Shown piece by piece: positions 44,209-48,310 of a DNA stretch of 64,000 nt; position 1 is the first letter of the stretch; each line of letters begins with the position of its first letter. The position numbers were made by a program, and so were the translations under genes. The notes beneath the pieces were generated by a model. That model was not told the DNA's origin, did not search any database, and saw nothing but the letters and a program-made list of their open reading frames with translations. Source of the DNA: Candidatus Saccharimonadales bacterium (GTDB lineage: Bacteria; Patescibacteriota; Saccharimonadia; Saccharimonadales; Saccharimonadaceae). The DNA lies in NCBI GenBank assembly GCA_044340745.1, contig JBIISZ010000005.1, positions 795 through 64,794 on the forward strand, given 5' to 3'.

Positions 44209-45171
44209 ATGCAACGTGGGCAAAAACAAACAGGTTTTACGATTGTCGAGCTGCTGATCGTCATCGTCGTGATCGCCATATTAGCAGCCATCACTATCGT
44301 TGCCTATAACGGTATTCAGAACCGCGCGAAAGAGACGGCCGTGAAGAACGATGTTGCTCAGGCAGTGCGCCAAGTAGAGGCCGCAAAAGCGGGGGATAGT
44401 AAAGAACTGTATCCTGCGAGTAGTGCGATTACGCTGAAATCAAGCGGGGGTGTGACAGCTCGGTACTCACCAAACAGCACTGGAAACGAGTACTGCGTCC
44501 AGGCGACCAACGGTACGCTTGAATATATGGCGACGAGCCTTGATAAGACAGTGCGCACCGGAACCTGCGACGTAGATAGCGGCCTTGTCGTCTGGCTTCG
44601 TATGAACGGGAATGCCACCAACACAGGAAGCGCAGGCGGTACGTTTTCCGTCACTGGCGCAACGGCAACGACAGGGCAGAACGGACAAGCAAATACTGCC
44701 TACCAGTTCACCAGCGGATCAACCATCTCGCAGACTATCACGAACGAATTCCCACAGTTGACAGCATCCGCGTGGGTGTACAACGACAGCCTGTCGGGTA
44801 CGCCAGGGTTATTGAACGGCATCGCCGCGTCGCCTATCCACTGGGAGATATCTGGTGGCGCATGGCGTCTTCGTCTCGCGGGTATCGATAGGGGAAATAT
44901 CGCGACGCCATCGCCAGCGCAAACATGGTCGCATGTGCTTTTTACCTATGACCGTACAAGTGGTGCGTTACGGTATTATCTAAACGGTTCGCTGGTTACG
45001 ACACTCAATGGAAACTCCGGATTGAATGATTATTTCTCTGGGGGGTTTGTCATCGGGCAGTCGAACGGTGCCGGGCGTCAATGGCTTGGTAAGATTGATG
45101 ACGTCCGTGCATATAATAGGGTCCTCAGTGATGCCGAGGTACAAACCCTCTACGCAGCCGGCGCCCAGTAG
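44209..45171 (+). CDS. Prepilin-type protein with a C-terminal LamG-like domain
   Basis: G|FTIVELLIVIV; TWSHVLFTYD...YYLNG...GKIDDVRAYNRVLS. Confidence 0.88.
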   Translation: MQRGQKQTGFTIVELLIVIVVIAILAAITIVAYNGIQNRAKETAVKNDVAQAVRQVEAAKAGDSKELYPASSAITLKSSGGVTARYSPNSTGNEYCVQATNGTLEYMATSLDKTVRTGTCDVDSGLVVWLRMNGNATNTGSAGGTFSVTGATATTGQNGQANTAYQFTSGSTISQTITNEFPQLTASAWVYNDSLSGTPGLLNGIAASPIHWEISGGAWRLRLAGIDRGNIATPSPAQTWSHVLFTYDRTSGALRYYLNGSLVTTLNGNSGLNDYFSGGFVIGQSNGAGRQWLGKIDDVRAYNRVLSDAEVQTLYAAGAQ

Positions 45172-45213
45172 CCCGCTTGCCAAGTTGTATAAAAAAATGC
45201 TACACTTTGTATA

Positions 45214-45410
45214 GAAACGTTTGAGCGGCCATCACCCGCGAGTTTCGGGAAGAACCATGTATGTGTTCAGTTGCCTGCGAGGCTACATACATCCAGTAGA
45301 ACCCGACGCGCTCCCGGCGTTATAGCGGACAATGAAGTGCTGGAAGTATATTCTTTCGGAAATCGGATGGTACCACCCTGTGTAGGGTTCCGATGACCGG
45401 AAGTTTTTTT
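45214..45410 (+). ncRNA. T-box riboswitch (Ile-specific) with ultrashort stem I and an intrinsic terminator
   Basis: Specifier AUC (45231-33) in the loop of GCGG/CCGC; stem II with GAA/AGUA; antiterminator ATCGGA-TGGTACC-ACCC-TGTGTA-GGGT-TCCGAT (45362-94); terminator TTCCG-ATGAC-CGGAA-G-T7; promoter TTGCCA-18-TACACT. Confidence 0.9.
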
Positions 45411-45430
45411 ATTTTCATAAGGAGTGAGCA

Positions 45431-48310
45431 GTGAAATTTCAAGCAGGAAGCCGCCGTCGTGCGCTCGAATACGAAAAAGATCTTGTCCGATATTGGAAAG
45501 AGAACAAGACCTTTGAAAAATCGATCGAGCTTCGTTCAAAAGACAATTCATACGTCTTCTATGACGGCCCTCCGTTCATTTCCGGTGTGCCGCACCACGG
45601 TACACTTTTAAGCTCAATCGTCAAAGACGCCGTCCCACGTTATCAAACGATGAAAGGTAAGCGCGTTGAACGGGTGTGGGGCTGGGACGCTCACGGCCTT
45701 CCTGCGGAACGATACACCGAAAAGAAACTCGGCATCAATTCCCGACAAGAAGTGATAGAATACGGCATCGAGAACTACATCACCGCCACCCGTGCGAACA
45801 TGCTTGAAACAAGCTCGCTTTGGGAAGATACCATCGACCGTATCGGCCGCTGGGTCGACTTCAAGGGCGCATACAAAACCATGGACAAAGATTACATGGA
45901 ATCTATTTGGTGGGCTTTCAAGACATTATACGAAAAGGGTAAGATCTATGAAGGTGAAAAGGTACTGATGTACTGTACGCTCGATGCGACGCCACTTTCA
46001 AAGGCTGAGGTCACCATGGACGCCGGCGCGTACCAGGATGTGACTGATCCGAGTGTCTATACCAAGTTCACCCTCGAAGACGGCACGGTGCTTCTTGCCT
46101 GGACGACTACCCCCTGGACATTACCTGCCAACACGGCCCTTGCTATTAACCCTGGCATTACCTATGTAGAGGTAAAAGTAGGGGATGACCAGTTCGTACT
46201 TGCCAAAGACCTTGTTGAAACCGTACTGACTGATGAAAAACACCAGCCGCTCGAACACACGGTTTTACGGGAACTGACCGGCGAAGACCTTATCGGCAAA
46301 CGCTATCAGCCACTCTTCGAGGACCGCGGCGAGAACGCGCACCAAGTCTGGGCTGCCGACTACGTCACGACTGATTCTGGTACGGGTATCGTTCACATCG
46401 CGCCAGCCTATGGTGAGGAAGACTTCGCCCTGGCACGTGACAAGAAGATCCCGGTCGTCCATGTGCTCGATGAAAACGGTGAATACACCGAAACCGAATG
46501 GCAGGGTGAAAACGTTTGGGCAATCAACAAAACCATCGCCAAAGCGCTCCATGAACGCGGCATGGTATGGAAAATCGATTACATCCGCCACTCCTACCCG
46601 CACTGTCACCGCTGTGGGACGAAACTTATGTACCGCGCTCACCCAAGCTGGTTTATGGACATCGACGCGCAGCGCGAGCAAATGCTTAAACAAAACGGCG
46701 ACATCGAATGGTTCCCAGAGCACGTCAAGAACGGCCGTTTCGCCAAAACCATCGAACAAGCACCAGACTGGAACATTTCTCGTGACCGCTTCTGGGCGAC
46801 CGCCATGCCAGTTTGGAAGTCACCATCAGGCAAGACCAAAGTCATCGGTAGCTACGCTGAACTCAAAGAGCTCAGCGGTATCGAACTTGAAGACTACCAC
46901 CGCCCATGGATTGATGACGTTACCTTTGATATCGACGGTGAAACCTACGCCCGTATCGATAAGGTGATGGACAGCTGGTTCGAAGCCGGCAGTATGCCAT
47001 TCGCGCAGTTCCACTATCCATTCGAGAATAAAGAGAAATTTGAAGCTAACTTCCCAGGTGACTTCATCGTCGAGTATATCGGCCAAGTCCGCGCCTGGTT
47101 CTACTATATGCACGCCATGAGTGTTGCCCTGTTCGGTGAAAACTCGTTTAAGAACGTTGTCGTGACCGGCAACGTTGCCGGAAATGATGGCCGGAAGATG
47201 AGTAAAAGCTACGGCAATTACACTGACCCGAATGAACTGATGGATAAGTTCAGCGCCGACTCGCTGCGTTTCTTGCTCCTCTCAAGCCCGCTCCTTAACG
47301 GTGAAGACTTCGCTTTGCAGGACAAGGAAGTAGGGGATGTTGCGCGTAAGCTCAGTATGGTCTGGAACATGTACGATTTCTTCACGATGTACGCCGACGT
47401 CGACGGTTGGGAATTTGACGGCACGCTTGTCGATCCTTCCGACGAAGTCACCAACCCGCTCGACCAATGGATTATCGGCCGCGTTCACCAGCTGCTTCAG
47501 CAAATTGAAACCCATATGGACACATACGACATCCCGAATGCCATCAACCCAATCTTGCCGTTCCTTGATGATGCCTCGAACTGGTATGTCCGTCGTTCCC
47601 GCCGCCGTTTCTGGAAGTCAGAAGACGACACCGACAAAGATGCTGCTTACAAGACACTGCATTACGTACTGGTGCGCCTGAGCCAAGCTCTTGCGCCATT
47701 CGTGCCGTTCATGGCCGAAGAACTGTACCGTAAGCTGACGGGCGGCGAAAGCGTCCACCTGACCGATTGGCCGGAAGTTGGCCACGTCAACGAGCTCGCC
47801 CTTGACCATATGGCTCGAACGCGTGAGATCATCGAGCAAGGCCTGAGCCTGCGTATGTACAAAGACGAGAACGAGCAGCAGATCAAAGTCCGCCAGCCGT
47901 TGTCAGTTCTGCGCTACGGTGGTGCAAAACTCGATGCGTTCTACGAATCAATTATTGCCGAAGAAGTGAACGTCAAACTCGTCGAACACCTCGGTGCGGC
48001 CGAAGAAGATACCGCGCCGGTCGTCGAACTCGACAAAACCATCACCCCTGACCTCCGTGCTGAAGGGCTCGCTAGGGAAGTTATCCGCCACGTCCAAGCA
48101 GCGCGCAAGAACGCCGGCCTCAACGTCGACGACCGCATCGTCCTCAGCCTGACAAGCAGCGACGCTGAGCTGACGGAGGCAATCGACATCCATAGCCTCG
48201 TCATCATTGCGGAGACCCTCGCGACGGAACTGAAAAAGGGCGAATACAGCTACGCGGTCGACATCACCGTCGAAGGTTTACCGCTTCGCATCTCCCTCGA
48301 TAAAGCGTAA
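45431..48310 (+). CDS. ileS: Isoleucyl-tRNA synthetase, type 2 (eukaryote-like)
   Basis: FYDGPPF, WGWDAHGLP, WTTTPWTLPAN, GTGIVHIAPAYG, DWNISRDRFW, KMSKS; GTG start with AAGGAG SD. Confidence 0.96.
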   Translation: MKFQAGSRRRALEYEKDLVRYWKENKTFEKSIELRSKDNSYVFYDGPPFISGVPHHGTLLSSIVKDAVPRYQTMKGKRVERVWGWDAHGLPAERYTEKKLGINSRQEVIEYGIENYITATRANMLETSSLWEDTIDRIGRWVDFKGAYKTMDKDYMESIWWAFKTLYEKGKIYEGEKVLMYCTLDATPLSKAEVTMDAGAYQDVTDPSVYTKFTLEDGTVLLAWTTTPWTLPANTALAINPGITYVEVKVGDDQFVLAKDLVETVLTDEKHQPLEHTVLRELTGEDLIGKRYQPLFEDRGENAHQVWAADYVTTDSGTGIVHIAPAYGEEDFALARDKKIPVVHVLDENGEYTETEWQGENVWAINKTIAKALHERGMVWKIDYIRHSYPHCHRCGTKLMYRAHPSWFMDIDAQREQMLKQNGDIEWFPEHVKNGRFAKTIEQAPDWNISRDRFWATAMPVWKSPSGKTKVIGSYAELKELSGIELEDYHRPWIDDVTFDIDGETYARIDKVMDSWFEAGSMPFAQFHYPFENKEKFEANFPGDFIVEYIGQVRAWFYYMHAMSVALFGENSFKNVVVTGNVAGNDGRKMSKSYGNYTDPNELMDKFSADSLRFLLLSSPLLNGEDFALQDKEVGDVARKLSMVWNMYDFFTMYADVDGWEFDGTLVDPSDEVTNPLDQWIIGRVHQLLQQIETHMDTYDIPNAINPILPFLDDASNWYVRRSRRRFWKSEDDTDKDAAYKTLHYVLVRLSQALAPFVPFMAEELYRKLTGGESVHLTDWPEVGHVNELALDHMARTREIIEQGLSLRMYKDENEQQIKVRQPLSVLRYGGAKLDAFYESIIAEEVNVKLVEHLGAAEEDTAPVVELDKTITPDLRAEGLAREVIRHVQAARKNAGLNVDDRIVLSLTSSDAELTEAIDIHSLVIIAETLATELKKGEYSYAVDITVEGLPLRISLDKA

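Follow-up and report, generated by a model that had tools for sequence, protein, structure and literature searches.

How can a T-box leader that lacks the platform for the tRNA elbow be coupled to a transcription terminator? This question is raised by a 64-kb stretch of a Candidatus Saccharimonadales genome (contig JBIISZ010000005.1, hereafter the window, to whose full length of 64,000 nt all coordinates refer), in which an isoleucine (AUC) T-box leader occupies positions 45214-45410, before the isoleucyl-tRNA synthetase gene ileS. Reviews tie the architecture of T-boxes to their output: a long stem I with an elbow platform goes with transcriptional control, which depends on fast capture of the tRNA, and an ultrashort stem I goes with the slower translational control found in Actinobacteria. 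The window leader joins an ultrashort stem I to a hairpin and U-run. Its architecture is observed, and from it we infer that the leader is probably a tRNA-Ile-sensing T-box riboswitch controlling ileS by transcription attenuation, in which stem III exchanges one of its strands with a terminator that encloses the discriminator.

The leader carries the features by which a T-box is recognized, that is, a specifier followed by a purine over a GA (kink-turn, K-turn) motif, with a codon that fits ileS, a stem II S-turn with a stem IIA/B pseudoknot, and the discriminator motifs. Its bulge reads TGGNACC, and no other such site in the 64-kb window comes with intact A1 and A2 helices. A scan of the window against Rfam at gathering thresholds gave no match. 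When the Rfam T-box model RF00230 was used in E-value mode, it aligned end to end with positions 45211-45395 (E = 6.2e-7, searching 401 nt) and scored 37.4 bits where the cut-off is 93; 7 nt took the place of 78 model positions of distal stem I. The score falls below the gathering threshold because distal stem I is missing. A comparison of this Infernal type had been proposed in a first-pass annotation made from the letters of the stretch, and the model does align over its full length, though below threshold. Among homologous loci, RF00230 recovered 3 of 11 at E ≤ 0.01, with a top score of 36.9 bits.

The distribution of the leader was established in 80 GTDB species genomes, chosen as those whose isoleucyl-tRNA synthetase (IleRS) is most similar, each locus being cut so that ileS starts at position 1501. 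The leader lies directly 5′ of ileS, or behind a short open reading frame (ORF), in 61 of the 80 loci, and 400-1200 nt upstream, before one or two passenger genes and then ileS, in 14 others. Of the remaining loci, four are on cut contigs and one (L056) has no leader, so that 75 of 76 informative loci are positive. Compensatory changes are found in every helix. The combination of an ultrashort stem I with a terminator is therefore a conserved class and not a one-off. The first-pass annotation had proposed this hybrid from the window and suggested a survey of ileS leaders; the survey finds it to be the layout common to all 62 aligned Saccharibacteria leaders.

The half of the leader that decodes the tRNA is composed of the following elements:

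45216-45244 (+): ultrashort stem I, with a base helix of 45216-45218 paired to 45242-45244, from the sequence and the Rfam alignment.
45225-45228 and 45236-45239 (+): 4-bp stem of stem I, GCGG paired with CCGC.
45229-45235 (+): 7-nt specifier loop CCAUCAC, with AUC at 45231-45233 followed by the purine A45234.
45223-45224 and 45240-45241 (+): K-turn-like motif, a GA on either side of the 4-bp stem.
45245-45306 (+): stem II, from folding, with a base helix of 45245-45249 paired to 45302-45306 and the S-turn strands AAGAA (45250-45254) and AGUAGAA (45295-45301).
45307-45329 (+): stem IIA/B pseudoknot, in which IIA pairs 45307-45309 with 45317-45319 and the IIA loop pairs with 45326-45329.

Pairing in stem I, the base of stem II, IIA and IIB was scored on an alignment of 60 sequences (alignment A2), in which 15 of 17 pairs change on both sides, while controls with slid partners were 30-38% paired. 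The 4-bp stem is paired in 100% of the cells and all four of its pairs show two-sided changes (GUGG/CCAC, GCGG/CCGC, GAGG/CCUC, AUGG/CCAU, ACAG/CUGU and others). The 7-nt loop that it closes reads YYAUCAN, and hence AUC, in 62/62 leaders. Pairing in the base helix of stem II reaches 94.7%, with 5/5 pairs covarying, and GAAGAA and AGUAGA are almost invariant across homologues. Over the homologues, pairing amounts to 84% in IIA and 66% in IIB, with compensatory changes in both; the window's own IIB is weak, with about three pairs that can be drawn. A long stem I and its distal interdigitated T-loop platform are absent from the leader, as judged from its sequence and the Rfam alignment. The main elements of this half had been drawn at first pass, namely the GCGG-CCAUCAC-CCGC hairpin with AUC in its terminal loop and GA/GA flanks, which we confirm at 45223-45241, and the two S-turn strands of stem II, which are found at the positions given above. 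The distal hairpin of stem II is long in the window genome. Large lineage-specific hairpin insertions occur in stem II (window, L001, L026, L076), in stem III (L025, L069, L076) and in helix A2 (L027, L079).

The half that would sense the tRNA 3′ end follows immediately:

45335-45339 (+): purine string AAGUG.
45340-45359 (+): stem III, CUGGAAG (45340-45346), loop 45347-45352 and CUUUCGG (45353-45359), from folding of the truncated leader.
45360-45361 (+): linker AA, which completes the RRRxG-stem III-AA motif of 45335-45361.
45362-45394 (+): T-box discriminator core, formed by A1, the bulge and A2.
45362-45367 and 45389-45394 (+): helix A1, AUCGGA paired with UCCGAU.
45368-45374 (+): 7-nt bulge UGGUACC.
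45375-45379 and 45384-45388 (+): helix A2, ACCCU paired with AGGGU, with the loop GUGU.

The 7-nt UGGUACC bulge is thus present between A1 and A2, as claimed at first pass, and the RRRxG-stem III-AA motif is that defined in PMC7583486. Covariation in stem III, A1 and A2, as well as in the terminator fold, was scored on a second alignment of 54 sequences (alignment A1). Helix A1 is 100% paired with 4/6 pairs covarying, all five pairs of helix A2 covary, and the four outer pairs of stem III are 97-98% paired, three of them covarying. Stem III has 3-10 contiguous pairs in 55/62 homologues; a simple count gives 0-2 pairs in L037, L053 and L057, and none is found in L046, L060 and L061. In these last three leaders (L046:1409-1479, L060:1420-1482 and L061:1399-1468) CCC(C), AA(A) and A1 come next after the purine string, and a G-run immediately 5′ of the U-run is the pairing partner of the C-run. 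They are odd, as stem III has been reported to be indispensable for binding of the tRNA 3′ end.

In bacterial tRNA-Ile the discriminator base is A73, with which the U at bulge position 4 would pair, as proposed at first pass. A search for tRNA genes in the window and about 100 loci turned up no tRNA-Ile, the only hits being tRNA-Val in L081 and L082. Variants of the bulge exist: UGGAACC (L039:1432, L073:1437), which would require a discriminator U73 or a mismatch, as well as UGGUAUC and UGGUAAC, with further variant loci at L018:1434, L055:1429, L064:1436 and L012:886.

Downstream of the discriminator the leader ends in a hairpin that reaches back into stem III:

45353-45410 (+): proposed intrinsic terminator, a hairpin (45353-45403) followed by U7 (45404-45410).
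45353-45359 and 45397-45403 (+): its 7-bp basal helix, CUUUCGG paired with CCGGAAG.

Above the basal helix there is a 2x2 internal loop (AA / GA), and A1, the bulge and A2 then sit intact at the tip. The 3′ arm CCGGAAG, located after A1, nearly copies CUGGAAG, the 5′ strand of stem III. Folding of the full window leader gives this extended hairpin as the structure of minimum free energy, whereas folding without the last 20 nt yields stem III, A1 and A2 instead. The energies calculated for the window are -18.2 to -19.0 kcal/mol for the antiterminator state and -22.7 to -24.3 kcal/mol for the extended terminator; the corresponding family medians are -20.1 kcal/mol (stem III, A1 and A2 together) and -33.8 kcal/mol. 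In essentially all 62 leaders the discriminator and tail likewise take the extended layout as their minimum-free-energy fold, and a T-run of at least 4 follows the hairpin in 62/62. Basal helices in the family are mostly of 10-18 bp, their 5′ arm being made of the stem III loop and 3′ strand, and their 3′ arm being a near copy of the stem III 5′ strand, extended into the loop.

Our results show that this pairing is conserved. In alignment A1 the terminator fold is 93.6% paired and 19 of its 22 pairs change on both sides, values reached by 0/500 shuffles, and slid controls are 38-53% paired. RNAalifold independently predicts the extended terminator. As both the outer pairs of stem III and the terminator covary, the 3′ strand of stem III has two conserved partners. 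Furthermore, the terminator leaves A1, the bulge and A2 intact, and its competitor is therefore stem III and not the helix customarily called the antiterminator. On folding and covariation, on which this architecture rests, stem III and not A1/A2 competes with the terminator.

A smaller hairpin lies within the same region:

45388-45402 (+): small hairpin UUCCG AUGAC CGGAA, 5 bp followed by G and U7, from a terminator scan; it would disrupt A1.

The first-pass annotation had taken a hairpin followed by U7 and exclusive of the antiterminator as the terminator. Under such a canonical model the A1 3′ strand UUCCG (45388-45392) re-pairs with CGGAA (45398-45402) and excludes the antiterminator as in Firmicutes, according to the rule given in PMC10907184. 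The terminator scan does detect this hairpin with its U7, and two ultrashort ileS T-boxes from metagenomes (L142 and L181, IleRS 53-58% identical) use the canonical layout with hairpins of 7-8 bp. In the window, however, the hairpin by itself is worth -5.1 kcal/mol, and a fold that includes it comes to -13.4 kcal/mol, against -18.2 for the antiterminator and -24.3 for the extended hairpin. An equivalent can form at -4 kcal/mol or better in only 12/62 homologues, the close relative L001 being among those that are unable to form it, and covariation backs the other pairing. The hairpin and U7 seen at first pass do exist, but the hairpin is weak and unconserved, and it is unlikely to be the terminator. 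A role for both hairpins, with the extended helix as the main terminator and the small one as a back-up or as a folding intermediate that helps A1 to open, strikes us as equally doubtful. In its favour, the two share the 3′ arm 45397-45403 and the U-run, and the basal helix of the window is the shortest of the family; yet the comparative data do not require a second hairpin, and the small one is energetically uncompetitive.

The level at which the output is exerted can be read from the position of the ribosome-binding site:

45419-45433 (+): Shine-Dalgarno (SD) sequence AAGGAG (45419-45424) and GTG start codon (45431), beyond the terminator hairpin and outside all predicted helices.

The SD of the window lies 9 nt past the U-run and shows no complementarity to the discriminator. 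Across the 56 homologues in which ileS follows directly, an SD-like motif is found after the U-run in 54, and the gap between U-run and start codon measures 13-45 nt, also in 54. The SD is hence free of the terminator hairpin, as had been claimed at first pass, and its position past the U-run and outside predicted helices argues for transcription attenuation and not SD sequestration as the output. The hairpin and U-run could still be a constitutive or leaky attenuator, or an element of RNA stability, next to a T-box that acts post-transcriptionally or is a relic, with no read-through controlled by tRNA. The missing elbow contact, thought necessary for kinetic control (PMC7583486), speaks for such a view, but the motifs that contact the tRNA (AUC, S-turn, RRRxG...AA and UGGUACC) are under strong purifying selection, and in more than 60 species covariation links the 3′ arm of the terminator to stem III. 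With all motifs and the covariation kept, a relic is disfavoured and we regard this explanation as quite improbable. Translational control by SD sequestration, as in Actinobacteria, is the least probable of all: it is seen in L089 (GC 57%, IleRS 41% identical), where an ultrashort stem I is accompanied by a CCUCU in A1 complementary to the SD GAGGAG, but it is contradicted in the window, and likewise in 54/56 homologues, by the place and sequence of the SD.

The region between terminator and ileS is occupied by other genes in part of the family. The loci with these variable passenger genes are L002, L006, L012, L013, L014, L020, L028, L030, L035, L036, L038, L047, L049 and L068, and the products encoded there include CYTH, GNAT acetyltransferase, small cupin, CAP, HAD hydrolase, PemK/MazF-like toxin and ArsC-family proteins. 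As they sit between the T-box and ileS, these genes would be co-regulated by tRNA-Ile. Small, highly acidic ORFs (58-144 aa) are found right after the terminator and before ileS at L004:1335, L011:1287, L019:1287, L043:1313, L054:1244 and L006:1070; those of L006 and L011, the two that were scanned, gave no Pfam match.

The mechanism that we propose for attenuation by stem III exchange is as follows. By analogy with solved actinobacterial ileS complexes, the anticodon GAU of tRNA-Ile would pair with AUC in the terminal loop of stem I, and the stem II S-turn and IIA/B pseudoknot would support this contact, with no distal stem I available for the tRNA elbow. The 3′-ACCA of an uncharged tRNA would then pair with the UGGU of the 7-nt bulge, and stem III and the RRRxG...AA purines would dock on the resulting tRNA-bulge duplex, as they do in solved actinobacterial and Bacillus complexes (PMC7583486). 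When no uncharged tRNA is bound, CCGGAAG would oust the 5′ strand of stem III from CUUUCGG, A1 would be extended down to U7 and transcription would terminate before ileS. With uncharged tRNA docked, stem III would be locked, the basal helix could not close and the polymerase would read through to the free SD. A1, the bulge and A2 would not be remodelled at any point; stem III would be the real antiterminator and the sole helix that needs to open. Binding of tRNA and termination by the leader are both predicted from its sequence. Published data on stem III are consistent with this scheme: an antiterminator deprived of it shows no appreciable tRNA binding (PMC7583486 section 5.2), and stem III is coaxially stacked on the antisequestrator and moves off upon tRNA charging (PMC12647780).

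Several observations weigh against this scheme. The 7-bp basal helix of the window is the shortest of the family, its advantage over stem III is of only about 4-6 kcal/mol, and the small canonical-style hairpin could contribute in the window genome. L046, L060 and L061 keep the basal helix without a stem III, and competition by stem III is therefore not the whole story. With A1, the bulge and A2 preserved inside the terminator, the OFF state might still allow tRNA to contact the bulge. The tRNA elbow is bound by the interdigitated double T-loop motif (IDTM) of distal stem I, a motif considered necessary for a capture fast enough for transcriptional control (PMC7583486), and this contact is missing from the leader. 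Finally, the scheme assumes that the RNA polymerase of Saccharibacteria terminates at such long nested hairpins. As for the broader proposal, that Saccharibacteria hold a natural class of transcriptional T-boxes without tRNA-elbow contact, switching by partner exchange of the stem III 3′ strand around a static, nested discriminator, we give it about an even chance.

Related leaders were also found beyond the 80 loci, through a pattern scan of metagenomes in which about 80% of the matches were due to chance and some 24 true T-boxes were left after filtering. All of these read AUC, all precede ileS where the contig extends that far, and 18 have the nested terminator. In L142:2492-2640 and L181:4824-5000 the A1 3′ strand re-pairs downstream (UCCAAUGC/GCAUUGGA and UUCCAAU/AUUGGAA) ahead of a U-run. 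Given these canonical terminators, two terminator designs coexist among related lineages and the hybrid occurs with more than one expression platform. L081, whose IleRS is 44% identical and whose nearest named relatives are Saccharibacteria, also has this ultrashort leader, its terminator again being built on stem III. L089:1330-1500, a GC-rich relative with an ultrashort stem I, a CUAUCA loop and predicted sequestration of the SD by the A1 3′ strand, matches by sequence the actinobacterial translational type, which therefore exists among related IleRS genes. No T-box was found directly upstream of ileS in the IleRS relatives L092 (an Acidimicrobiales metagenome-assembled genome, MAG), L093 (a Dormibacter MAG), L084, L086, L087, L090, L091 and L094.

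The out-group set of IleRS sequences contained no annotated actinobacterial comparator, and taxonomy was assigned through a second homology search. The IleRS of the window is 38-43% identical to those of Acidimicrobiales, Dormibacterota, Planctomycetota and others alike; for actinobacterial and other relatives taken together the figure is about 40-43%. At first pass the leader had been thought possibly acquired from an actinobacterial host lineage. Since it is near-universal in the clade, extends to the divergent L081 and accompanies an IleRS about equally distant from several other groups, a recent transfer from a host is unsupported. The predicted leaders fit an ultrashort decoder that has long been associated with type-2 ileS, the expression platforms being specific to lineages. 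That the ultrashort type is ancestral to both T-box classes is possible.

The leader and its gene are placed in the window as follows:

45172-45430 (+): intergenic stretch between a pilin-like ORF (44209-45171) and ileS.
45177-45206 (+): sigma-70-like promoter from a consensus scan, TTGCCA, an 18-nt spacer and TACACT with an upstream TG.
45214 (+): probable 5′ end of the leader transcript, the start of an RNA-Seq contig.
45431-48310 (+): ileS, GTG start, encoding a 959-aa type-2 (eukaryote-like) isoleucyl-tRNA synthetase (TIGR00392, 792 bits).

Comparable -35/-10 pairs were found 5′ of stem I in 39/62 homologues, and about half of the leaders have an additional 5′ hairpin between promoter and stem I. 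In a wastewater RNA-Seq run (X18) there is a contig of 151 nt, covering 45214-45364, that starts exactly at 45214, 8 nt past the -10 hexamer. This is weak evidence that the leader is transcribed with its 5′ end at 45214, in agreement with the predicted start, as it comes from a single contig, which has no bearing on termination. The best structure matches of the IleRS are 8C8V and 8C8U (677 bits), followed by T. thermophilus 1ILE (646), against 303 bits for S. aureus 1FFY. Its nearest relatives are 76-87% identical and carry the names Candidatus Microsaccharimonas, Saccharimonadaceae and Saccharibacteria. Public runs that contain the stretch are chiefly metagenomes of lake water, sludge and groundwater. 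The ORF 5′ of the leader (44209-45171, +) encodes a 320-aa type IV pilin-like protein with a prepilin-type N-terminal cleavage/methylation signal. Elsewhere in the window, GGTGGTACCGG is repeated every 402 nt at 7869, 8271, 8673 and 9075 (+) and is also found at 10836 and 10956; the 402-nt periodicity points to tandem repeats of about 134 aa within a large ORF.

A family in which an ultrashort decoder is joined to a terminator, conserved across much of a phylum, offers a direct test of the rule that links architecture to output. If our reading is correct, a long stem I is not required for co-transcriptional T-box control, and stem III, only recently recognized as part of the sensor, can itself act as a switching element; the nested terminator assigns it a well-defined genetic role, accessible to mutational tests. 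Because these leaders score far below the Rfam threshold they are missed in the annotation of Patescibacteria genomes. ileS is among the few visibly regulated genes in the reduced genomes of Saccharibacteria, and its leader would show that these epibionts monitor isoleucine charging, which is relevant as they are thought to depend on their hosts for amino acids. It should be of clear interest to specialists in T-boxes and riboswitches.

The ultrashort stem I has been described as belonging to a translational class of T-boxes (bioRxiv 10.1101/2023.02.28.530422; also PMC7583486), and a long stem I that carries an elbow platform is generally required in transcriptional T-boxes (PMC7583486 section 6.2). 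In TBDB the class II model was searched in Actinobacteria only, plus those class I hits whose stem I is truncated (PMC7778990). In the literature searched we found no T-box described in Saccharibacteria, and no mention of a T-box riboswitch in the 15 best-ranked papers on Patescibacteria, CPR (Candidate Phyla Radiation) or TM7, although an actinobacterial ultrashort leader with a terminator may have been mentioned earlier. The abstract of Sherwood 2015 is said to speak of "many", not all, actinobacterial leaders as predicted to be translational. The architecture of the leader is new to the literature searched, while the kind of T-box is itself known.

The closest known systems are the ultrashort ileS T-boxes of Actinobacteria, among those treated being the elements of M. 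smegmatis, M. tuberculosis and N. farcinica (Sherwood et al. 2015; PDB 6UFG and 6UFM; PMC7583486). Like them, the Saccharibacteria leader has a very short stem I, set above a GA motif and carrying AUC and then a purine in its terminal loop. It also shares with them the S-turn of stem II, a IIA/B pseudoknot, purines on either side of stem III, the UGGNACC bulge and a type-2 ileS. It differs in its phylum and in an output through an intrinsic terminator instead of SD sequestration: the M. tuberculosis element breaks its antisequestrator to form a sequestrator (PMC12647780), whereas the leader described here keeps A1/A2 and exchanges stem III. With the canonical Firmicutes T-boxes that act on transcription (RF00230; glyQS and tyrS of B. 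subtilis) it has in common the discriminator core, an intrinsic terminator and its U-run, and a position upstream of an aminoacyl-tRNA synthetase gene. Unlike them it lacks both the long stem I and the distal T-loop platform that receives the elbow, hence the 37 bits against a cut-off of 93, and the 5′ strand of its terminator is the stem III loop and 3′ strand, in place of the canonical A1 and A2 3′ strands (PMC10907184). L142 and L181 resemble the window in their ultrashort stem I with AUC, in the regulated gene ileS and in having a terminator and U-run, but their terminator re-uses the A1 3′ strand (UCCAAU...AUUGGA) in textbook style. The switch that we propose also resembles strand-exchange riboswitch platforms such as ZTP and pbuE (PMC10085676, PMC10907184), in which a downstream strand invades a ligand-stabilized helix and completes the terminator. 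In contrast to these, the ligand would be the 3′ end of a tRNA, and the invaded stem III is an accessory sensor helix and not the helix that closes the aptamer.

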